Origin: a virus
Lineage: Duplodnaviria > Caudoviricetes
IMG/VR virus record: IMGVR_UViG_2744054452_000001
Location: 16,516-80,515 of that record
Strand: one strand, 5' to 3'
Length of the DNA: 64,000 bases
Shown piece after piece: positions 37,940 to 50,530 of the stretch (the stretch's first letter is position 1; the number at the start of each line of letters is the position of its first letter). The position numbers and the translations under genes are program-made. The notes beneath the pieces are model-generated. The model was not told the DNA's origin, did no database searches, and was given only the letters and a program-made list of their open reading frames with translations.

Positions 37940-39247
37940 TTATACCGAAACACCCAAAATTTCCACCTTGCGCACAGGGAATTCGTACTCGATGCAGTAG
38001 CCGGCCGCGTCAGCCGCGTGTTCGACACCTGCAGTCTTGTCAACTTCGCGGCTGTGGGGCTTGTACAGCGTCTGCTCAAGCGCCTCGATCAGCTTCTTGC
38101 ATCGTGGGTCAACGTACATGCGAACCGCACCGCTTGCGCTCTTGAGCATGCGGTTGACGGAATTCACGCGGTCAGCGACTGGCGGGTGCTTCTTACGGTA
38201 TTTCTGGCGCTTGAACCCGCGCTCACGGAACACGTCCAGGTCAGACTCCCCGCGCTGGTGCCCACGGTACGCGCCGGCGGGGTCGGGATAGATCGTGATC
38301 TGGTTGATGAAACGCCAGTACCGGCGCTCGATCTCGTCGCACAGCTCTTCGGTGTTGGAGCTCGGCAAGCAGATTTCATCGACGGCCCACAGCTCCTTGG
38401 TGCGCGGCTGGTACTGGAACACCACGGAACTCATGGGGTCGATGTTGAAGTCCTGCCCGATCCACAATGGCAGGTCGGGGTTGAACGCCAGGCTCTTAAC
38501 GTGCGTTTTTCGGTCGAATGCGTGATACACGCGGCCGCTCATGGTCTCGAATGACGCCTCAAACTCCTGCTTGAAGCTCTTTTCGTCCATGTCCTCACGA
38601 GCCGCCTGCAGTTCCTCCAACGGGATGAACGGCGAGGTGATCGTGGGGAACTGCCAGCTCATCCAGTCGCGCAGACCCTTCTTGCCCAGCGCGTAAAGCT
38701 CATGCAGGAAGTTGTACGCCTTGGGCGTGCCGATGAACAGGGCATGGCCGCCGGTGGATGCCAGCGTTGGGCGCAGCACCTTCTTCCAGGCCTCGGGGTC
38801 AATATCCTGCACCTCGTCCATGACAAGGTAATGGATCCCCACGCCGCGCAGCGAGTCGGGATTGTCCGCGCCCTTGAGCTCGATGCGCGTGCCATTGACC
38901 AACGTGATCGCCAGGATCGTTTCGTTGTACTTTTTGACCCACCCGCGCGGGATGGCCTCGACCAGCTCAGGCCACATGATCTGCTTGGCCATGCGGTAGG
39001 AAGGGGCGACGTACCAGACCAGGCGCTTTTTCTTGCGGGCGAACTTGATAAGGCTGGTCTTGGCCAGCTGGGTCTTGCCCCAGCGCCGGCCGGCGACCAC
39101 CACCTTGAAGCGGTAAGGCGCGCTGTAGACCTCCATCTGCTTCTTGTGCAGAAAGAGCGTGTTTTCAGGAGGGCGGAACGACTCGCGGATCTCGTCGGTT
39201 GCTTCGGAGACCGCTGCTGCTACCGCCGTGGGCACGAGAAGGGTCAT
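37940..39247 (-). CDS. terL: terminase large subunit
   Basis: AGRRWGKT Walker A, LVMDE Walker B, IGTP, QEFEASF, GQDFN nuclease motif, H.ADA.GY. Confidence 0.93.
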   Translation of the reverse strand: MTLLVPTAVAAAVSEATDEIRESFRPPENTLFLHKKQMEVYSAPYRFKVVVAGRRWGKTQLAKTSLIKFARKKKRLVWYVAPSYRMAKQIMWPELVEAIPRGWVKKYNETILAITLVNGTRIELKGADNPDSLRGVGIHYLVMDEVQDIDPEAWKKVLRPTLASTGGHALFIGTPKAYNFLHELYALGKKGLRDWMSWQFPTITSPFIPLEELQAAREDMDEKSFKQEFEASFETMSGRVYHAFDRKTHVKSLAFNPDLPLWIGQDFNIDPMSSVVFQYQPRTKELWAVDEICLPSSNTEELCDEIERRYWRFINQITIYPDPAGAYRGHQRGESDLDVFRERGFKRQKYRKKHPPVADRVNSVNRMLKSASGAVRMYVDPRCKKLIEALEQTLYKPHSREVDKTAGVEHAADAAGYCIEYEFPVRKVEILGVSV

Positions 39248-39873
39248 TCCAGACTCCCCAGCTCGTCCAGACCATCGGTCTCGCCCGCACCCATGTCGTC
39301 GGTTTCAGGAACTGCGTCGCGCAGCTGCTCGACTTCGCCCTGGGTCAGCTCGCGCACGGTCAAATCTGGCAGGTCGTCAATGTCCTCCATTGCCTCCATC
39401 TTTGGCACGTTCAGGAGGTCATAGGCTTCCTTGCGTGTGATGGCCAGCACCTCGGCAGCCATCTTGTAGACGGCCATCGACTTGCGCAGCGTCCCAACGT
39501 CCACGCCGGCGGCGCGGGACTTGTGAATGTCCTGAAACGCCATCTGTGCCAGCATCTGCGACATGCTGTAGTGGCGCTCTTTGACGGACTTAATGCGCTT
39601 GAGTGTTTCGTCCAGCTCGCTCCTGACGACCTCTTCGACCGCTTCTGCCACGGCCTTCGTCGCCGCGGTGCTGGCAACGTCCTCGACACTGGTGCCCTTG
39701 GAGATACCCATCTTGGCGAACAGGCGCGAGAAGGTCTCGGGGCGCTTGCCGAACTTCTTGGACAGATCAGCGAGGGTTACGGTGCCCGAAGTCCACAGTG
39801 CCGCTGCCTCTGCGCGCTGGCGGGGTGTCAGGTTGCCCCGAATCACCTTTTCCTTCTTGGTCTCTTCGCTCAT
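39244..39873 (-). CDS. terminase small subunit candidate (N-terminal HTH)
   Basis: HTH-like TLADLSKKFG.RPETFSRLF, helical middle, acidic tail; overlaps the terL start. Confidence 0.7.
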   Translation of the reverse strand: MSEETKKEKVIRGNLTPRQRAEAAALWTSGTVTLADLSKKFGKRPETFSRLFAKMGISKGTSVEDVASTAATKAVAEAVEEVVRSELDETLKRIKSVKERHYSMSQMLAQMAFQDIHKSRAAGVDVGTLRKSMAVYKMAAEVLAITRKEAYDLLNVPKMEAMEDIDDLPDLTVRELTQGEVEQLRDAVPETDDMGAGETDGLDELGSLE

Positions 39874-40046
39874 GCGCCCACCCCTTGCGCATGGCCTTCA
39901 CCCTCTTCCGTTTGGGCAAAAAAAAGGGCGGGTACTAAGCCCGCCTGTACTCCAAACTCGTCTGAGGTGTAGTGAGCGGAATTATAGCATCCAAATTCAG
40001 TCAGTTCTGACTTATTTTTTGGAATGCCGGTAGATGCATGGCTCAT
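39870..40046 (-). CDS. putative 58-aa leader ORF upstream of terS
   Basis: ATG at 40046 preceded by AAGAAGAAGAAGAAAAC; its TGA overlaps the terS ATG (ATGA). Confidence 0.4.
   Translation of the reverse strand: MSHASTGIPKNKSELTEFGCYNSAHYTSDEFGVQAGLVPALFFAQTEEGEGHAQGVGA
39918..39946 (-). terminator. intrinsic terminator upstream of terS
   Basis: Minus strand AGGCGGG-CTTAGTA-CCCGCCC followed by T8. Confidence 0.7.
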
Positions 40047-40170: not shown

Positions 40171-40337
40171 CGCTAACAATTGTTAGCGCTATTCTTTTTA
40201 TAGCAAAAATAGCTCCCGGCAGTGAATATTTTTCTTTTCAAAATCAACGGTTTACAGCAAATCGCTAACAATTGTTAGCGCTATCGTTTCTGTAGCGCTA
40301 ACAATTGTTAGCGCTACTGTTTTGGTAGCACTAACAA
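40171..40337. repeat. three perfect CGCTAACAATTGTTAGCG palindromes plus a half-site
   Basis: Copies at 40171-40188, 40263-40280 and 40296-40313 (extends to 26 bp, 40292-40317); half-site at 40325-40337. Confidence 0.9.
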
Positions 40338-40340
40338 ACC

Positions 40341-40697
40341 TCAGTCCTCCAGTACGAACTCACCCGGCTCGACGGTGATTTCCGGCACTTCGTCTTCCAG
40401 TTCTGGGATGGGCACCGAGGCGGAAAGAGGACGAGGATCGTAGAAAGCCAGACCACCCGGAGCGAGCCCGAATGTCTGACGCATGCGGCCCCTTCGCTGG
40501 GCAACCCCCAATTTCACGATCAGCCCCTTGGTGGCCATGGCGCGGATCGTGAACTGCAGGGATGCCTTGCTGGCGGACTCGGTGAGATCAAGGATCTCGT
40601 CCAGGTCGGGATCGCCGCGCTCACGGATGAAGTCCATGATTTTTCGCTGCATGGCGGAAGGCGCCCTCTTCTTGACGGGCTTGCGTGCGACTGTCAT
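40341..40697 (-). CDS. winged-helix DNA-binding protein
   Basis: S.MQ.KI..FI...LDEI.....SKASLQ..I..M..KGLI.K pattern with a basic wing. Confidence 0.7.
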   Translation of the reverse strand: MTVARKPVKKRAPSAMQRKIMDFIRERGDPDLDEILDLTESASKASLQFTIRAMATKGLIVKLGVAQRRGRMRQTFGLAPGGLAFYDPRPLSASVPIPELEDEVPEITVEPGEFVLED

Positions 40698-41773
40698 TCG
40701 GCAAGCACCTCACCGCGCTGGATGCGCTCGAGTTCCTTCAACTGCTCTTTCAGCGCTTCGCGCTCGCTGGGCTTCAAGGGCGGCTCGTTGACGGGATACT
40801 GGCCAGCCCATGTCGGCACCCAGCCTTCCCAATTGCCACTAAGGGCGGCATCAGGCGCCTGCTCATCGAATGCCAGCAGAGGCATGACGTTCGGCAGCGG
40901 CTGGCTGGTGGGCGGGGCACTGAAAATCCAGTACACCGTAGCCGAATAGACCAGCTGCTGAATCTGGCGCACCACGTACTCGATGGCCAGCTCGTTCACG
41001 CGGGTCATGCCCAAGTCGCGCTTGTCGCCCGACTTCTCGACGGATGACCACTTGTAGTAGAACTCGCGCAGCTTGCGATCCATGACCGCGCGCTCGGCAT
41101 CTGGAAGCCCACGCAGCTCGGCCAGAACCGCGACTATGTCGTAGCCTGGCGCCTTGAAGTAGGCGGCAAAGAAGACCAGGCCATCATTGAGCGCCGATGC
41201 CGTCTTGGGGCGGGTGAACTTCATGCCCGTCTTCACTGAGAAGGGGTTGAAGCGGCCCATTGAACTGCGGCTCTCAATGAATCGGATTTCGTAGCGGGCG
41301 CAGTACATGCGATAGGCCAGGTTTTTGAACCGGTAGGCGATGCCGGCACCGCGGTACATGGTGTCGAGCACGGTGCGGTTGTTCCAGGCTAGGTTGCGGT
41401 TGATCCAGGCCAGGCGCGTCTGGTTGACCAGGCGGTTATCACGCCCGTTCACGTTTGGGCGCAGGCGCGGGAATACGTCGTTGCGGCCGCCGTCCAATGG
41501 GCGAGGGTTCGCAATGACCGTAACGCCGACGAGCTGGGGAGCTTCGCCTGGAACGCGCAGCATGCAGCGCAGAAAACGAGAACCCGCAGCCAGCGTGTGT
41601 CCCTTGTAATGCAGCTCACTGAGAGCATGCCAGTCGTCAACAGTGCCCCATTCCACATAAAGGTGCTTCATCAGGCTCAGCGTGTGGGACTTGCCGGGAC
41701 GCCGAGGCTGATAAAGGATCTCCACTTCCTGCTGCTCCAGCATGTCGGCAATTTTTTCTTGATAGCTTTTCAT
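40694..41773 (-). CDS. GNAT-fold acyltransferase (similar to the acetyltransferase half of ABC-ATPase/GNAT fusions)
   Basis: L..LHY; RTVLDTMYRGAGIA acyl-CoA-binding loop; SMGRFNPF..K.G motif. Confidence 0.7.
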   Translation of the reverse strand: MKSYQEKIADMLEQQEVEILYQPRRPGKSHTLSLMKHLYVEWGTVDDWHALSELHYKGHTLAAGSRFLRCMLRVPGEAPQLVGVTVIANPRPLDGGRNDVFPRLRPNVNGRDNRLVNQTRLAWINRNLAWNNRTVLDTMYRGAGIAYRFKNLAYRMYCARYEIRFIESRSSMGRFNPFSVKTGMKFTRPKTASALNDGLVFFAAYFKAPGYDIVAVLAELRGLPDAERAVMDRKLREFYYKWSSVEKSGDKRDLGMTRVNELAIEYVVRQIQQLVYSATVYWIFSAPPTSQPLPNVMPLLAFDEQAPDAALSGNWEGWVPTWAGQYPVNEPPLKPSEREALKEQLKELERIQRGEVLAE

Positions 41774-41785
41774 GCTGGCGCCTGA

Positions 41786-42115
41786 TCAGATCGCGTTAGC
41801 GGCCACCAACTTGGACAGGATCTGGGCCTCCGTGGCATCACCGGTGTGCACCAGCTTGGCGGTGGACTCGCCACTGCCATTTGCACGCAGGGAAACGACA
41901 GATGGCGAGCCACGCAGGCCCAGGGCACGGGCATCGGCCAGGTTCTCCTGAATGTCCACCGTCACCATGGGCACAAGGTTCTCTTCGCAGACCTTTTCCA
42001 GAATGGGCTTGAGGCGCTTGCAGGGCGCGCAATTGGCGGCAGTGAAGCACACCACCCCGTCAAAGCCGCTCAAAACCAGTTCGCGGTATGTCATATTTTT
42101 ATTGTTCAGGTTCAT
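41786..42115 (-). CDS. thioredoxin-like protein
   Basis: FTA..CAPCK.L.P active site and a cis-Pro (GSP) region. Confidence 0.85.
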   Translation of the reverse strand: MNLNNKNMTYRELVLSGFDGVVCFTAANCAPCKRLKPILEKVCEENLVPMVTVDIQENLADARALGLRGSPSVVSLRANGSGESTAKLVHTGDATEAQILSKLVAANAI

Positions 42116-42172
42116 ATCTAACTAAGTCAGTTGTGACTTACTTTTTATTTTAATTCAGCGCGACCGTGCTGG

Positions 42173-42376
42173 CTACTTGAGACTCGGCACGCACTCTTCG
42201 TACAGCCAGACGGCCAGGCCAATCACCGCCATGGTGATGAATTCAAAGACGCCGACCAGGAAGCAGGCAACCACGAAGGCCGCCAGCAGCAGCACGCCGA
42301 CCAGGCCGACAGTGACAGCCAGCAGCAGCACAAAGATGGCAATTACGACTGCCAGGACGTTGTAGATCACATTCAT
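42173..42376 (-). CDS. small membrane protein
   Basis: 67 aa, almost entirely hydrophobic. Confidence 0.6.
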   Translation of the reverse strand: MNVIYNVLAVVIAIFVLLLAVTVGLVGVLLLAAFVVACFLVGVFEFITMAVIGLAVWLYEECVPSLK

Positions 42377-42399
42377 AGATATTTCTCTTCGGGAAGGGG

Positions 42400-43083
42400 T
42401 CAGGAAAGGGCCGCGACGCGCTCTGCATCGCGGTTGAATACATCGACGGTCAGCTTTTCACGAAAGCGCTTGGTGATGCACAGATCAGGCGCCAGGTCAT
42501 CGACCATGTCGGTGTGGGTTGTGGCCACCAGCAGCGTGGCACCGACCTGGCGGGCCATCTTTTGCATGGTGTAGGCGACGACCTTGGCGGCCGTGCGGTC
42601 AAGGATGGCCAGGAATTCGTCGGCAGCCCAGACTTGAGCGCCGGTCTCGATGGCCTTTGCCAGCCGGAAGCGGTAGCGCTGGCCGTCCGACAGCTCGGAG
42701 GGGCGACGGCAGTACAGGTAGGCGTCTTGAATGCCGGCCACGCCCAGCAGGCGAATGGCGTCCTTGGCATCTTTGCCAATTTGGTCGATCAGGGGCTCGT
42801 CGGTGAAGGAAATCGAGTCCAGGTTGATGACGGAGTCGCCGGCAGCGGCCATCTGGGCTTGCAGCTCGCGCAGCAGCACGGATTTGCCCCCGCCCGACTG
42901 GCCAGTGATGTAAACCACGTCGCCTTGGGCAATCTGCAGCTCTAGGTTGTCGAAAACGACGAATTCCTTGTCATCCAGACCGATGCCAAACGCTTCGGCA
43001 ATGGTCAGCACACGGTCAGAGCGCTGGATGCGCGTCATAAAGCGCTTGTCGATCTTGTAGGTGCGTCGCACGGGGGCGTTCAT
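42400..43083 (-). CDS. stand-alone ABC-family ATPase
   Basis: GQSGGGKS Walker A, LSDGQ signature, AADEF Walker B, ATTH H-loop; ATG at 43083; no permease gene nearby. Confidence 0.88.
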   Translation of the reverse strand: MNAPVRRTYKIDKRFMTRIQRSDRVLTIAEAFGIGLDDKEFVVFDNLELQIAQGDVVYITGQSGGGKSVLLRELQAQMAAAGDSVINLDSISFTDEPLIDQIGKDAKDAIRLLGVAGIQDAYLYCRRPSELSDGQRYRFRLAKAIETGAQVWAADEFLAILDRTAAKVVAYTMQKMARQVGATLLVATTHTDMVDDLAPDLCITKRFREKLTVDVFNRDAERVAALS

Positions 43084-43733
43084 GCTGTCTCCTTCTCGGT
43101 GAGCTCTTGAACCCATTTGCTGAACGCAGCCGCACCGGTCTCCCCGGTCGTCTTCTCTGCGATCGCCAGCATCTTTGCGATACCCCGGGCGGTGTCGGTG
43201 GGCACGTCCTTGAATCCGAAGGCGCGCGCAAGAGTGACGCGTGCCTCTGCAGCTGCAGCTGTACGCTTTGTCAGCTCTGCTTCCTGCTCCTGCAGCACGT
43301 CGTCCATGTCCTCCATGAACGCGCTGGTGTCGATGGCGCCCAGGTCGGCCGTGCCAAAGTCCAGCTCCTTGGCATCAAAGATGCCGCCCAGCAGCTCGGT
43401 GTTGAATTCAGCCAGGTCAGCGGTCAGCTTCTGGGTGTCCAGATCACCGATAGCCACGCGGTTGTCTGCGAGGCGGGCGGCCTTGACCTGGTCGGGGGTG
43501 AGGTCGTAGCGCACCAGCACCAGAACCTCGGTCATGCCGAGCTCCAGGCATGCCAGGCGACGGCCATGGCCCTTGATGATGACGCCGAACTGGTCAACAA
43601 CGATCGGCTGGTCAAAGCCGAAGCGCTGGATCGACGCGGCAATTGCCTTTACCTGTGCCTTGTCGTGCTTTTTGGCATTCAGCTCATACGGAATGAGCGC
43701 GTGAATGTCCCATTTTTCAATCTTGCTATCCAC
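43080..43733 (-). CDS. ParB/Srx N-terminal-domain protein 2
   Basis: L.PY..NA.KH...I..FGF.QPIVVD...II.GHGR..A...ADNR; GTG start at 43733. Confidence 0.85.
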   Translation of the reverse strand: MDSKIEKWDIHALIPYELNAKKHDKAQVKAIAASIQRFGFDQPIVVDQFGVIIKGHGRRLACLELGMTEVLVLVRYDLTPDQVKAARLADNRVAIGDLDTQKLTADLAEFNTELLGGIFDAKELDFGTADLGAIDTSAFMEDMDDVLQEQEAELTKRTAAAAEARVTLARAFGFKDVPTDTARGIAKMLAIAEKTTGETGAAAFSKWVQELTEKETA

Positions 43734-43756
43734 TTTTCTTCTTCTTCTGTGGGTGA

Positions 43757-43897
43757 TTACTTGACGCGGGCGAGGATGACTCCGGCACTCTTTGCGCCAA
43801 GGTAAGCCTTGACCGTGTCGATGGCTGCCGCGTGGTCGTCTGTCTTCACGTCGAACTTGGAGACCTTGCCGCTCTTGTCCTTGAAGTACACGCGCAT
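43757..43897 (-). CDS. 46-aa hypothetical protein (below ORF-track cutoff)
   Basis: MRVYFKDKSGKVSKFDVKTDDHAAAIDTVKAYLGAKSAGVILARVK; GGAG RBS; fills the gap between the two ParB genes. Confidence 0.65.
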   Translation of the reverse strand: MRVYFKDKSGKVSKFDVKTDDHAAAIDTVKAYLGAKSAGVILARVK

Positions 43898-43899
43898 GG

Positions 43900-44577
43900 T
43901 TACTCCAGCCCCAGGTTGGACTTCGCGGCGTTGGCCACCTCCACCAGGGCCATGCCGGCGGCAACCAGGCTGTCTTCTTCCTTGTCGAAGCCACGGGCAA
44001 CGATGAGCTTCTTGATGAGCTTTTCGACCGCCTCGCGGTCTTGGACGGGCACCTTGAAGCGCATCAGCTCGGTCAGCTTGACCGGGCGCTCGGCGGGTGC
44101 AGGAGTCACGTCATCCAGCGGGTCAACGTCAGCATCGAAGCCGATCTTCGACAGGTCGATCTCGTCAACGGCCTTGAACATGCCGGCCAGCTCGTCCTCC
44201 GTGTACGGCAGCATGGCAGCAACGTCTTCCATGCCAATGTCCTGCAGCACGGAGTTCAGGCGGGTCACGTCATCAATGCCGTAGCCGCCGTTGTCAGCAA
44301 GGCCGATCAGCTTGGCCTGCTTGTCATCAATCTTGCCCAGGCAGATGACAGGCACTTGCTCATGGCCGAGGTCTTTTGCGGCCCGCCAGCGGTGCTCACC
44401 ACCTAGAATCTGAAAAGTGCCGTCATCCAGCTCACGCACGATGATCGGCTTGTAAAAATTGAGTTGCTTGAGCGAATTGCGCAAGCGCCCCTCCATTTCA
44501 GGAGAGACAACATTGGAGTTCCATGGGTTCGGGCGCAGGTGCCCCGTTGGAACGTAGATGATTTTCAGTTGATCCAC
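43900..44577 (-). CDS. ParB/Srx N-terminal-domain protein 1
   Basis: LRPNPWN.N...PIIVR.....FQILGGEHRWRAA...ADN. Confidence 0.88.
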   Translation of the reverse strand: MDQLKIIYVPTGHLRPNPWNSNVVSPEMEGRLRNSLKQLNFYKPIIVRELDDGTFQILGGEHRWRAAKDLGHEQVPVICLGKIDDKQAKLIGLADNGGYGIDDVTRLNSVLQDIGMEDVAAMLPYTEDELAGMFKAVDEIDLSKIGFDADVDPLDDVTPAPAERPVKLTELMRFKVPVQDREAVEKLIKKLIVARGFDKEEDSLVAAGMALVEVANAAKSNLGLE

Positions 44578-44647: not shown

Positions 44648-46387
44648 ATGGTTCAGATTGGATATAACGCGGTTCACGCACAGGTTTTTGGCGCCACGAC
44701 GGAGGAAAAGGTCGAGATCCACCGGCTGCTGAGCGTCGATGTGGAGAATTCGACAGGCAACACGCTGATTGGCCTCGACAGCTCGCGCTGGACTGGCCAG
44801 ACGAGCTTTTTCAGCTTCGACAAGGGCACTTTCCCCGCCGGATTCGTTCATTTGGTCACGCAGGGGCTGCAGAAGTTCGGCAGCCAGGTGCGTGTGCAGC
44901 GCCCCGCCCTGCCCGAGCCCCTGGGGCCAGAGTTTCCCGAGGTCGATGAATTCGGCTACACCCCGCGCTATGACTATCAGCCCCGAGCGGTCGAGCAGCT
45001 GGTGCGCCATGGCCAGATCACCGTTCAGGTGGCGACCGGCGGCGGCAAATCACGCATCGCCCGGATGGCGCTCAAGCGCATCGACCGGCGCTCTCTGTTC
45101 CTGACCACCAGGGGCATCCTGATGCACCAGATGCAGCGCGAGATCGAAAAGATGGAGGGCGAGTGCGCAATCCTGGGCGACGGAGAATGGGGCATCCCCT
45201 ACACGAAGCCTGACGGTACAGAGGGCCGCCGACTGAGCAAGTTCTGCGTGGGCATGGTGCAGACGCTGGCGCAGCGCCTGGAGCCCAAGACCGTCAAATG
45301 GGAGCTGCAGGCGACGCTCGACCGCAACATGACTGCCCTCAAGAAGAAGGTGCAGGAATACAAGGCGCAGCTTGAAAAAGAAGGCATCAAGGGTCTGGAG
45401 CGCGCGAATCGCCTGGTCGCTTTTGAGGACGACCTGAAATCCAAGCTCCCTACCGAGGATGACCTGCGCCCCGAGATCGAGATAAAGGTCGAGCGTCACG
45501 AGAAGATGCGCCTGGCGACCCAGAAGATGCTGGCCAAGTTTGAGCTGGTGATCGTTGAAGAGGCACACGAGGTCAGCTCAAACAGCTTCTACGCGGTGAT
45601 GGAGTGCTGTACCGGCGCCTACTACCGCATGGCGGTCACTGCAACGCCCTTCATGCGCGAGGACGAGGCTGCAAACATGCGCTTGATGGCAGCGTGCGGC
45701 CCGGTAGCCATTCAAATTTCGGAGCAGACCCTGATCGAGCGCGGCATTCTCGCCCGCCCCTTTTTCAAGATTCTGCAGGTGCCTGCGGATAAGAAGCCCG
45801 CCCTACTGACTCGCAGCACCCCATGGCAGCGCGCATACACCCTGGGCATCGTTGAGCACGAGTACCGCAACAAGATGATCGCCGCCGAGCTGATTATGGC
45901 CAAGCGCTTCGGTCTGAACGCGATGGTGCTGGTGCAGCACAAGACACACGGCAGAATCCTCAAGGAGCTGCTGACCAAGTACGGACTGCGCTGCGAATTC
46001 ATCTTCGGTGAGGACAACCAGAAAGCCCGCGACAAGGCGATCAAGAAGCTGGCCACCGGAGAGATTGACGTGCTGATCGGCTCCACCATCCTTGACGTGG
46101 GTGTGGACGTGCCCAGCGTGGGCCTGATCGTGCTCGCCGGCGGCGGCAAGGCGGAGGTGGCGACACGCCAGCGCATCGGCCGCGGCCTGCGCGAAAAGAA
46201 GGGCAAACAGGCAGACGGCTCTCCCATGCCCAACTTCGCCTTCATCGTGGACGTGAACGACGACGCGAACAACTACCTGCAGGATCACGCCCTGCAGCGC
46301 CTGCTCATCATCCAGAAAACACCGGGCTTTGCCGAGAACATCGTCAAGCAGTTTGACTACGAAGCCCTGGGATTCAATCGCATTTAA
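44648..46387 (+). CDS. superfamily 2 DExH-like helicase
   Basis: RYDYQ, ATGGGKS, IVEEAH, TATP, LDVGVDVP and QRIGRGLR motifs. Confidence 0.9.
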   Translation: MVQIGYNAVHAQVFGATTEEKVEIHRLLSVDVENSTGNTLIGLDSSRWTGQTSFFSFDKGTFPAGFVHLVTQGLQKFGSQVRVQRPALPEPLGPEFPEVDEFGYTPRYDYQPRAVEQLVRHGQITVQVATGGGKSRIARMALKRIDRRSLFLTTRGILMHQMQREIEKMEGECAILGDGEWGIPYTKPDGTEGRRLSKFCVGMVQTLAQRLEPKTVKWELQATLDRNMTALKKKVQEYKAQLEKEGIKGLERANRLVAFEDDLKSKLPTEDDLRPEIEIKVERHEKMRLATQKMLAKFELVIVEEAHEVSSNSFYAVMECCTGAYYRMAVTATPFMREDEAANMRLMAACGPVAIQISEQTLIERGILARPFFKILQVPADKKPALLTRSTPWQRAYTLGIVEHEYRNKMIAAELIMAKRFGLNAMVLVQHKTHGRILKELLTKYGLRCEFIFGEDNQKARDKAIKKLATGEIDVLIGSTILDVGVDVPSVGLIVLAGGGKAEVATRQRIGRGLREKKGKQADGSPMPNFAFIVDVNDDANNYLQDHALQRLLIIQKTPGFAENIVKQFDYEALGFNRI

Positions 46388-48237: not shown

Positions 48238-48500
48238 GCGTTTGTGCCAGGCCTGGCCAGGGCTCGGCTGTATAAGGCGCTGGATACAGGATCAGGCTGG
48301 CCAGGATTTTGGATCCACTGTGCAGGTGTGCGTGTGCCATGGTGGACGGTGCTGTGTGCAGCGTGCCGGCGTGCTTGTGCCAGGTATAAGGCACATGGGA
48401 ATTGCCAGCCATGGAAAAACGGCGTCAAGGGCCACCCACCCCGAGCGAACCCGCATAAGGGGTACAAGGTCGGGGCGAGGGGTTTCCCCCTCTTGTCGGT

Positions 48501-48869
48501 TTAGACCACCTCATTACCCGCGCTTGTCAGCAGGGGCAATGCATTGCATTCAAACCATTGCACCATTGCAAGGGCTAGTTGCGCTTGCTGCATGAGAGGG
48601 GCGCATTCTGCATTGTCAGTATGTATCGAGCTATCCCATGCAATGGTCGTTTCTTCTGGGTCGATCAGTTGCAGGGTAATAGACCCGGTTGCATAGTCGC
48701 GGTTCACATCAAACCCGATAGTGAGGGTTTGTGCTTCATGGTCTTGAGTCACGGTCACGTCATAGCAAACACCGGGCAGCAATTGCGGGTTTTGCTGGGT
48801 CAGGGCTTCGAGTGCTTGCGCTGCTGTGGTGAGTGCTTGTGCTGCTGTGGTCATGTTGATAGCTTTCAA
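48501..48869 (-). CDS. hypothetical early protein
   Basis: ORF in the motif-free zone; start may be ATG 48854. Confidence 0.65.
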   Translation of the reverse strand: MKAINMTTAAQALTTAAQALEALTQQNPQLLPGVCYDVTVTQDHEAQTLTIGFDVNRDYATGSITLQLIDPEETTIAWDSSIHTDNAECAPLMQQAQLALAMVQWFECNALPLLTSAGNEVV

Positions 48870-48924
48870 AAAGGGGGCTCAGTGCGCCCCTGCGCAGTGC
48901 AGGGGCAAGGGTCAGGGGTGAGGG

Positions 48925-49188
48925 TTACAGCGCAGCGCGTGCGCGTTGCAATGCTTTGAATTGAGCGCGGGTCATAGTGCCCCCTTGTGGGGGCATGGTG
49001 GGCGCTTGTGGTGCGCGGGCTTCATCGTCTGCCCAGCGTGCCCACGGTTTGCGGGCTGCGCTTGCTTGCATGAGTTCTAGGGCTTCGGTCTGAAACACGA
49101 ACCCAGCACGGGGCGCGCTGGGCATGTGACCCGTAGTCCCATTGGTGCGATACATAACCCCATCGTCGTCATACTTGATAACTGTCAT
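48925..49188 (-). CDS. hypothetical early protein
   Basis: ATGA overlap with the upstream ORF. Confidence 0.6.
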   Translation of the reverse strand: MTVIKYDDDGVMYRTNGTTGHMPSAPRAGFVFQTEALELMQASAARKPWARWADDEARAPQAPTMPPQGGTMTRAQFKALQRARAAL

Positions 49189-49388
49189 TTCGCGCCCCTT
49201 GCATTGAAACGGTTTTGCATGGTGCTAGGTGCTTTGATAACCATCACGATACTGACAAAGAACGCTGCAAGCTGAATGCAGAGTGCAGTGTCTCGCGTAA
49301 TGTGCCCTGCGATATTGAGGGCGATAGAGAGCACGGGGGCAATGATGCTAATCATCATTGCAAGAATTTCGGTTTGGTTCTTATTCAT
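49185..49388 (-). CDS. small 2-TM membrane protein
   Basis: Two hydrophobic helices. Confidence 0.6.
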   Translation of the reverse strand: MNKNQTEILAMMISIIAPVLSIALNIAGHITRDTALCIQLAAFFVSIVMVIKAPSTMQNRFNARGAK

Positions 49389-49448
49389 GTTCGCTATGCA
49401 CGGGGGTTCTTAGCCCCCTGCATAAGTAAGTCAGTTCTGAGTTATCAA

Positions 49449-50183
49449 TTAAGCAAACATTGCTTCGATCTGACCGGGAGTTGCACGCCCCATCAATTCA
49501 AGAAACGCGACAGTCATAGGGTGCGCGCGGTTGATGGTGTACGCTGCATTCTTGCCCTTGCCCACTGCATGCACTGCCCCGCAGACTTGCAAGAATCCCG
49601 ACTTCCCTACACTGCGGGAAATTTGCGTGGGCATGGTGCCCTTGTCGATCTGGGCGAGTTTTGCGCGAATCGCAGAGCGGGCAACGCCCCGAGTGTCTGC
49701 GCTCATTCCCTCGTTTTTCACTGCCCCCGTGCCCAGATACAGCAAAGCATCGTTTTGCAGGGGTTTACCGTCTGCATAGTCAAGCGCGAGCAAAATAACT
49801 GCGCTTGTCTTGTCGATGCTTTCCCACTTCGGGACAGGTGCGCTAATTGCGCCCAGAAACTGATTAAAACGCTTGATAGCTTTCATGGGCGCCCCGGTGC
49901 AGTAAATGCGCGAGGTGTCAATTTTGAGCTTTTCAATCGCGTTATCTAACTCTTGAGTCAGTGCGAACGGGCTAGAAGTGTCACCGCTGATAATGCGCTG
50001 CATGTCTTCGCTGCCCTCGACCGTGATCCCCGTATCAGGGTCAATAAATGCCCATGTGCGGGAATCGTTGAAAATCGCTGCATAGCGGGTTTTGAATGTT
50101 TCGGTCTTGCCCTCTGTATTGCGAGCGAAAATTTCTTCGCGTTGCTGGGCAGTCAGAACCGTGGTCTTGTCGAATTTTGTCAT
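49449..50183 (-). CDS. hypothetical early protein (244 aa)
   Basis: AAAGGGA RBS; first gene downstream of the AT-rich promoter block. Confidence 0.75.
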   Translation of the reverse strand: MTKFDKTTVLTAQQREEIFARNTEGKTETFKTRYAAIFNDSRTWAFIDPDTGITVEGSEDMQRIISGDTSSPFALTQELDNAIEKLKIDTSRIYCTGAPMKAIKRFNQFLGAISAPVPKWESIDKTSAVILLALDYADGKPLQNDALLYLGTGAVKNEGMSADTRGVARSAIRAKLAQIDKGTMPTQISRSVGKSGFLQVCGAVHAVGKGKNAAYTINRAHPMTVAFLELMGRATPGQIEAMFA

Positions 50184-50315
50184 TTTGAATCCCTTTAGGT
50201 TGATTAGGTTTGATTTACATGCGCCCTATGGTGAGCGCTATGTGATTAGAGACAGTCAGATTTTTAATGAACTGCCCCTAGGGGCTATGCTGTACTGCGA
50301 TCAGTGCAGCATGTT

Positions 50316-50530
50316 TGCATTGTAGCAGAGTTTTTTCTAGTAAATACAAAAATAATTATTTTTTGTGTTTACAGCTAAAACCCGCTGTATGCATCGCAGT
50401 GCTTGCTTGTGAGCATGTTTCGCTGCGATGGGGTCAATTATGCACCAATTTTTTAGGTATCCCGAGAAAAATTAGATAAATAATTATTTTTTGTTTTTTC
50501 GTGTATCCCAGCAAAAACTAAGCTATACTG
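50316..50530. promoter_or_regulatory. AT-rich divergent sigma70-type promoter block
   Basis: Minus-strand extended -10 TGCTACAAT (50319-50327); plus-strand TATACT (50524-50529); two AATAATTATTTTTTGT UP-like tracts. Confidence 0.55.

Follow-up and report, generated by a model that had tools for sequence, protein, structure and literature searches.

Gene content of the cassette and its surroundings

The stretch analysed here (64 kb; referred to below as the window) covered bases 16516-80515 of the 80.5-kb IMG/VR viral contig IMGVR_UViG_2744054452_000001, which had an estimated completeness of 71%, and the element under study was a gene cassette at 40341-44577 of the window, with all genes on the minus strand and a location directly upstream of the terminase genes terS/terL. 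The gene content and order of the contig agreed with those of siphoviruses of about 84-122 kb, namely Pseudomonas phage nickie, Salmonella phage SSU5, Rhizobium phage RHEph10, and Stenotrophomonas phage BUCTxx99. The cassette displayed the structure ParB1–46-aa open reading frame (ORF)–ParB2–ABC ATPase–67-aa membrane peptide–CAPC thioredoxin–359-aa GNAT-fold protein–winged-helix-like protein, and at the module level the sequence comparisons gave good support to a virus-specific, terminase-linked ParB, ABC-ATPase, and GNAT system. Each gene listed for this cassette in an initial annotation was recovered at its coordinates in the same minus orientation, and the absence of ParA held true within the cassette, with a separate ParA-like ORF elsewhere on the contig. 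The portal gene came after terS and terL. The features were as follows:

43900-44577, minus strand: ParB1, a ParB/Srx N-domain protein of 225 aa (PF02195 and phrog_723)
43757-43897, minus strand: 46-aa ORF flanked by the ParB1 and ParB2 genes, with a GGAG ribosome-binding site ahead of its ATG, conserved by position only
43080-43733, minus strand: ParB2 of the methyltransferase-associated ParB N-domain type, 217 aa (phrog_930, phrog_498, and the PADLOC MTase_II N-terminus)
42400-43116, minus strand: soluble ABC-type ATPase consisting of the nucleotide-binding domain (NBD) only, 238 aa (PF00005 and phrog_293)
42173-42376, minus strand: 67-aa hydrophobic two-helix peptide, recognized from its sequence, not conserved
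41786-42115, minus strand: thioredoxin with CAPC (PF00085)
40694-41773, minus strand: GNAT-fold acyltransferase-like protein, 359 aa (phrog_886, AlphaFold2, Foldseek/VIA, and motif A)
40341-40697, minus strand: winged-helix-like protein, 118 aa (phrog_900 and Atlas leads)
40172-40312: 16-bp palindrome in three exact copies, between the gene of the winged-helix-like protein and terS
39927-39945, minus strand: terminator-like hairpin followed by a T-run, with the ATG of terS 54 nt downstream
39244-39873, minus strand: small terminase candidate terS (phrog_867, E = 4.2e-31), preceding terL in all relatives
37940-39247, minus strand: large terminase terL (Terminase_6N/6C; phrog_2, E = 1.2e-51)
44648-46387, plus strand: divergently transcribed DEAD/ResIII helicase (Pfam and phrog_16), syntenic in all relatives

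The ABC ATPase and the GNAT-fold protein as a split pair

The ABC ATPase matched PF00005 (E = 8.8e-12), phrog_293 (E = 3.7e-40), and 204 NBDs in PDB, and it had the determinants of an NBD, with Walker A, LSDGQ, D166-E167, and H201 being invariant in 14 sequences; its gene overlapped the 3' end of ParB2 by 37 nt. No permease gene was found in the cassettes of the window, SSU5, nickie, or RHEph10.

The 359-aa protein gave no match in Pfam or NCBIfam, curated GNAT hidden Markov models (HMMs) included, and it belonged to phrog_886 (E = 1.7e-87), a large and highly conserved family with 442 proteins at E ≤ 1e-3. Its AlphaFold2 model, built from a 47-sequence alignment with a predicted local distance difference test (pLDDT) score of 90.1, displayed the alpha/beta core of the GNAT fold, interrupted by inserted helices at about residues 190-277. 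Foldseek against PDB gave nine hits at E ≤ 1e-3, every one of them GNAT-fold, headed by Mu Mom (E = 2.6e-4) and NAT10 (E = 3.3e-4), and in VIA Mom was tied for the top Z (11.6), its alignment of 172 residues being the longest. Motif A was present as R141-x-x-G144-x-A146, in which R141 and G144 were invariant in the 47 sequences and A146 in alignment A2. This predicted fold and conserved motif bore out the earlier description of the protein as a GNAT with RxxGxG(A). The only PDB profile hits of the family were to motif A of acetyl-CoA GNATs (E = 0.024), and because the conserved RxxGxA aligned with that motif, an acyl-CoA donor would be more likely than the aminoacyl-tRNA of Mom.

An exhaustive HMMER search with the GNAT protein returned 159 representative relatives, many of them 410-880 aa in length and matched by the query in their C-terminal half; among the 10 longer relatives scanned, nine had an N-terminal ABC_tran domain and four a C-terminal GNAT Pfam domain (Acetyltransf_1/7/10). 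Since the long relatives carried ABC at the N-terminus and GNAT at the C-terminus, the pair in the window represented a split version of a fusion family with the same domain order, as the initial annotation had proposed, and HMMs derived from alignments of the phage ATPases and GNATs matched 80/80 fused loci. One fused homolog, P0261, additionally had an intein (Hint and LAGLIDADG) within its ATPase domain. Compared to the COG2401-type 'ABC-type ATPase fused to a predicted acetyltransferase domain', a name applied by JGI and GenBank annotators to relatives of the window proteins, both halves were homologous and arranged in the same ATPase-then-GNAT order, but the window had two separate genes (42400-43116 and 40694-41773) instead of a single polypeptide, with the two ORFs for the membrane peptide and thioredoxin between them. 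No paper on the COG2401-type fusion was found in literature searches by family names.

The ParB-like proteins and the remaining cassette genes

ParB1 matched PF02195 (E = 1.6e-12) and phrog_723 (E = 2.1e-49) and kept the motifs GGEHR and DNGxYG in the alignment. The true start of ParB2 was the GTG at 43733 (43080-43733, 217 aa), not that of a longer TTG frame, and the resulting protein matched phrog_930 (E = 9.2e-71), scored 19.4 bits against PF02195 (under the family cutoff), contained an invariant GHGRRLA, and resembled the N-terminal part of phage DNA methyltransferase families: (i) phrog_498 (E = 2.2e-35) and (ii) PADLOC MTase_II (PDLC03229; E = 5.8e-22). The Pfam scan detected ParB_N only, with no helix-turn-helix (HTH) or C-terminal ParB domain in either protein.

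The two ParB-family proteins bring to mind a plasmid or prophage partition system, in which the ParBs would be the centromere-binding proteins, with the ABC ATPase in place of ParA; the unique triple palindrome adjoining the cassette would fit it, and so would the SSU5-type relatives, which are phage-plasmids. This explanation is nevertheless very unlikely: the HTH or C-terminal ParB domains were not detected, and neither an HTH/dimerisation ParB nor an adjacent ParA nor a parS of the ParABS kind was recognized; the palindromes were not conserved; the GNAT partner and the linkage to TerL would be left unexplained; and a separate ParA-like gene was present in this contig (7443-8258 of the contig, plus strand, about 50 kb off and outside the window, matching the SSU5_033 region), with SSU5 and RHEph10 likewise having theirs away from the cassette. 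The module was also present in Nickievirus phages, and no temperate behaviour was seen for the Nickievirus phage psageB1 (PMC8537276). Given the ParA-like ORF, the phage of this contig may, from its sequence, share the plasmid-prophage lifestyle of SSU5.

The palindrome GCTAACAATTGTTAGC (16 bp) had three exact copies at 40172-40312 versus none expected, and this array upstream of terS was not conserved in the relatives; it could serve as an operator, a pac site, or a parS-like site.

As for the remaining genes, the 46-aa ORF had no sequence relative at E ≤ 1e-3, and small ORFs were found at the equivalent position in nickie, RHEph10, and Nican01; the 67-aa hydrophobic ORF had no match among the relatives. 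The thioredoxin was identified by its Trx-fold HMM (PF00085, E = 1.1e-9) together with the CxxC motif CAPC; in tblastn it was located between ABC and GNAT in 23/34 IMG/VR loci, with no match at E ≤ 1e-3 in SSU5, nickie, or BUCTxx99. The 118-aa protein matched phrog_900 (E = 7.9e-6), and its putative winged-helix-like nature was assigned from MarR/ArsR-like leads in the Atlas only (score 0.92, TM 0.55-0.62).

Distribution of the cassette and its linkage to packaging genes

The gene searched for was present in 31/50,697 phage records, all from this group of siphoviruses of about 84-122 kb (nickie, SSU5, and RHEph10). The gene order was kept in these 31 records and in 34 IMG/VR loci, of which all 34 had GNAT followed by terS/terL, 30 had ABC, and 24 had ParB2, the misses of the latter two being contigs that ended before those genes. 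The synteny of the cassette is far beyond chance.

The scan for fused homologs was applied to one genome per prokaryotic species and gave 80 loci (L053-L132), mostly from Planctomycetota and Bathyarchaeia/Nitrososphaeria contigs. Judging from their gene content, these contigs of metagenome-assembled genomes probably hold proviruses or are viral contigs. In the HMM search of the 80 loci, TerL was found beside the fused gene in 47 and ParB in 27, and two arrangements were recognized: (i) ABC-GNAT, ParB, and TerL in this order in planctomycetes and (ii) TerL immediately upstream of the fused ABC-GNAT gene, often overlapping it, in archaeal contigs. The linkage to terminase genes proposed earlier for the cassette in the window was thereby found to extend over very large evolutionary distances. 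Because the TerL linkage was deep and ran across differing gene orders, it gave the strongest support for a role of the enzyme alongside genome packaging, and the probable target of the module is the genome or the packaging machinery.

A role in host takeover or counter-defence would predict that host tRNA, rRNA, or a defence protein is acetylated and that the adjacency to the terminase is inherited gene order only. The PHROGs category in which both enzyme families are placed, 'moron, auxiliary metabolic gene and host takeover', and the NAT10-like Foldseek hits point in this direction, but inheritance alone is hard-pressed to account for a TerL linkage found in Proteobacteria, Planctomycetota, and archaeal viruses with varied gene orders, and the PADLOC matches were limited to generic ABC and ParB-methyltransferase domains; such a role is accordingly held to be of low probability.

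Candidate acceptors of the ATPase-GNAT pair

The reading preferred here, tentatively, is that a ParB-guided ATPase-GNAT pair acylates phage DNA so that the packaged DNA is modified; the domains and their linkage were observed, and we infer the substrate and the timing. Under this proposal, (i) both ParB proteins would recruit the ATPase-GNAT pair to phage DNA late in infection, (ii) ATP hydrolysis would power access to the substrate, and (iii) the GNAT would move an acyl group onto an exocyclic amine of a base, leaving the packaged DNA modified. A DNA acceptor is preferred because of the methyltransferase-type ParB2, the precedent of ParB-dependent DNA modifiers, the logic of ATPase plus GNAT in nucleobase acetyltransferases, and the structural neighbours Mom and NAT10.

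An ATPase combined with a GNAT is a design familiar above all among nucleic-acid acetyltransferases (TmcA/NAT10). Like these, the window system paired an NTPase with a GNAT, and theirs acts on a nucleobase amine (cytidine N4); theirs differs in being a helicase-like ATPase fused to the GNAT with an RNA substrate (PMC13219725), while the window had a separate ABC NBD. Mom shared with the window protein the GNAT fold with an inserted helical element and an origin from a phage gene (a late one for Mom), and it was the top Foldseek hit and tied for the top VIA Z, but there was no similarity to it at the sequence-profile level. According to PMC13219725, Mom is a GNAT with an HTH-like insertion that acylates adenine N6 in double-stranded DNA at the degenerate motif SAS, acting alone and using Gly-tRNA(Gly), whereas the window GNAT had an acetyl-CoA-type motif A together with ATPase and ParB partners. 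Two likenesses concerned the ParBs: (i) ParB2 matched the N-terminal domain of the ParB-methyltransferase fusions (phrog_498 and PDLC03229) and (ii) among the phage thymine dioxygenases (5mYOX), one clade (E) requires ParB-like partners for its activation, and enzymes of this kind are found together with ParB and terminase genes (bioRxiv 10.1101/2025.08.14.668559). The window system differed from these known ParB-N partner systems in having an ATPase-GNAT pair as the catalytic partner, along with two distinct ParB paralogs.

An alternative of only slightly lower probability is that the ATPase-GNAT pair acylates a packaging protein (terminase, portal, or capsid) or DNA-neutralising polyamines and that the ParBs separately handle DNA ends or concatemers. 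The archaeal fused gene, which adjoins and often overlaps TerL, suggests a direct partnership with the packaging motor, and a thioredoxin suits protein chemistry; against this, ParB2 belonged to a type fused with DNA-modifying enzymes, NAT10, a nucleobase acetyltransferase, was among the top Foldseek hits, and the protein or polyamine acceptor remains hypothetical.

Several observations weigh against DNA acylation. The conserved thioredoxin is left unexplained by it, as it also is by a protein or polyamine acceptor, and the tight adjacency to TerL is equally consistent with action on packaging proteins. Mom was not recovered by sequence: there was no hit by phmmer and none in the PDB profile search, and hhalign gave a probability of 0.5% (E = 0.12) over 12 columns. 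In addition, a GC-rich hairpin followed by T8 (39927-39945, minus strand) was located after a TATAAT-like box and 54 nt before the start of terS; this could be a late promoter/terminator arrangement that requires antitermination and parts the cassette from the terS/terL transcript, and because of this terminator-like hairpin the co-transcription of the cassette with late genes stays putative.

An HGGM-free island near the cassette

About 4 kb from the cassette, a region was identified in which HGGM and its complement KCCD were absent:

48435-50529: HGGM/KCCD-free island, spanning one minus-strand operon of four ORFs
49449-50183, minus strand: conserved island gene isl244, 244 aa, with homologs inside the islands of relatives

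The island had 0 sites, compared to expectations of about 131 by the average of the window and 94 by its own composition, so that the missing HGGM of the initial annotation was real. The next longest gap among 4009 sites was 152 bp, and there was no second island in the 80.5-kb contig. The zeros comprised exactly the six HGGM contexts, with the remaining ten NGGN contexts being normal or enriched, and outside the island the observed/expected ratio of HGGM was 0.69-1.19, indicating that the rest of the contig was not depleted. The operon contained ORFs of 244, 67, 87, and 122 aa and extended from an AT-rich upstream region at one end to a hairpin at the other. Two copies of AATAATTATTTTTTGT were found in this AT-rich region (50330-50520), as possible promoter or operator elements. 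The AlphaFold2 model of isl244 had a pLDDT of 87.3 and gave weak winged-helix matches only, with no Foldseek hit at E ≤ 1e-3; the modelled fold suggests that it is probably a multi-winged-helix nucleic-acid-binding protein. In contigs of two runs from one study, 405 bp (window 48482-48886) were replaced by 6 letters with loss of the 122-aa ORF, and thus this last island gene would be dispensable in nature. The 30 listed natural variants gave one new HGGM site, located at the island edge, versus 4.5 expected, which was too weak to use.

Several candidate causes of the island were rejected: (i) chance, given a lambda×gap of 132; (ii) an assembly artefact, the island being present in independent assemblies; (iii) deaminase hypermutation, the ORFs being intact and the Trp codons always preceding G or T; (iv) genome-wide restriction avoidance, HGGM not being depleted in the rest of the contig; (v) avoidance of Type I-F or Cas9 protospacer adjacent motifs (PAMs) in the HGGM clade, the island being rich in GGG and GGT; and (vi) avoidance of Ssp CCA sites, ACCA and CCCA being present in the island. 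PAM avoidance is possible for the GG-free islands of relatives; the PAM depletion described in PMC12174588 was genome-wide and statistical only.

Islands in relatives and their relation to the cassette

The comparison was extended to 19 regions (the window plus 18 loci), each reaching at least 2.5 kb beyond the helicase and including the near-duplicate loci L013/L014, L020/L036, L027/L030, and L028/L029. Islands recurred at the same relative position with lineage-specific motifs (HGGM, MGGM, an HGGC core, or all GG), and three groups were recognized: (i) 13/19 regions had a free stretch with lambda×gap of at least 20, for example, 125 in L007, 115 in L036, 97 in L033+L045, and 92 in L010+L043; (ii) L018 avoided MGGM alone (18.6); and (iii) L027, L028, L029, L030, and L034 were weaker, with mainly the HGGC core depleted in L027 and L030, all HGGM contexts depleted several-fold in L028, and no clear motif pattern in L029 and L034. 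The avoided motif was common to phages of just 47-65% GNAT identity. The islands of relatives held isl244 homologs with identities of only about 20-35%, and avoidance must therefore have been kept by selection over long divergence.

Six cultured phages were examined. GG/CC was nearly absent from islands of 1137 bp in nickie, 1083 bp in Nican01, and 973 bp with one site in RHEph10, all with a GC content of 46-52%, and the island was unique within the wholly scanned genomes of nickie and RHEph10. As their DNA was GG/CC-free, nickie gp019 (L039:14068-14622) and Nican01_00136/00137 (L051:4482-5426) contained no Gly, Pro, or Trp. The isl244 HMM detected no relative in nickie, RHEph10, SSU5, BUCTxx99, or JGB6, and the ORFs annotated in the islands of nickie and RHEph10 matched neither the isl244 profile nor each other. 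Among 17 long viral contigs, five ended inside the island or about 0.3 kb from it (the starts of L004, L014, L029, and L032 and the end of G002/L043); such ends might lie at the boundary of a terminal repeat or at a hypervariable spot where assemblies break.

The initial annotation had further proposed that HGGM may be the target of the cassette, with the co-occurrence of cassette and island across phages as a check, and the outcome of this check was mixed. Islands were indeed found in many relatives, but the cassette occurred without one in SSU5 (whole genome) and in the scanned parts of BUCTxx99 (29.7 kb) and JGB6 (19 kb), and in the ±7-kb flanks of 74 fused-gene loci no free stretch exceeded 428 bp; both results weigh against the HGGM link. 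When the gene content of this contig, nickie, and RHEph10 was compared with that of SSU5, no gene tracked the presence of the island except a PhoH-like ORF. The conservation of the motif across divergent phages, together with its lineage specificity, points to a phage-encoded, co-inherited motif reader; the cassette is a candidate for it, but it is far more widespread than the island, and the cassette-island link is putative. That the HGGM missing from 48435-50529 is the target of the cassette is thus a separate, weaker proposal, which we consider rather unlikely, and slightly less probable still is its full form, in which every HGGM/GG site (about one per 16 bp) would be acylated during packaging, and the site-purged early operon alone would stay unmodified and readable on the incoming genome.

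An island unrelated to the cassette is a possibility that we rate as high as DNA acylation itself. The island would then be a first-injected pre-early leader like the first-step-transfer region of T5, purged of the recognition motif of a nuclease-type agent; this agent, a defence or else an enzyme by which the phage itself degrades host DNA, would act at a time when the leader alone has entered the cell. A T5-like leader fits the island at least as well as the cassette-linked proposal: the depletion was absolute and strictly local, coincided with one operon from its AT-rich upstream region to the hairpin, and is an operon-sized purge for which the T5 precedent accounts without any modification; the motif was lineage-variable and shared by divergent phages, as expected if the reader is encoded by the phages and co-inherited; and the cassette was widespread without islands. 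Moreover, the genome of the Nickievirus phage Nican01 resembles that of T5 in having long direct terminal repeats (PMC11256456), and the restriction-modification, CRISPR, and Ssp defences against T5 are effective only with sites in the first-injected region (PMC10644984). On the other side, the public records lacked a terminal repeat, making the position of the island relative to the genome ends conjectural; isl244 resembled a winged-helix binder rather than an enzyme; the nuclease is hypothetical; and two-step injection in these phages is presumed by analogy. The island and the T5 region shared a short, putatively early operon free of nuclease target sites in a siphovirus of about 110 kb, with a relative (Nican01) having long terminal repeats, but they differed in length (1-2 kb versus about 10 kb) and in what was avoided, which here was a degenerate 2-4-bp word at absolute zero. 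RHEph10 gp045 (L049:39826-40461) was annotated as a sigma-70-family factor, which would permit a host-sigma early class apart from later genes.

Biological significance

No published account of local motif-free islands or of the function of the module was found in literature searches. The location of an ATPase plus GNAT, usually with ParB, beside TerL in viruses of Proteobacteria, Planctomycetota, and archaea points to an undescribed packaging-coupled step, and the motif-free island implies a reader of very short motifs that is probably phage-encoded. Both features were present in the cultured phages nickie, Nican01, and RHEph10, and the cassette alone in SSU5, so that both questions are directly testable. 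If the acceptor is DNA, the cassette would add a second GNAT-based DNA hypermodification to that of Mom, and it would be the first to involve an ATPase and ParB targeting; and if the link to the island also proved true, DNA acylation in these phages would be coupled to packaging and would spare a leader built into the genome.

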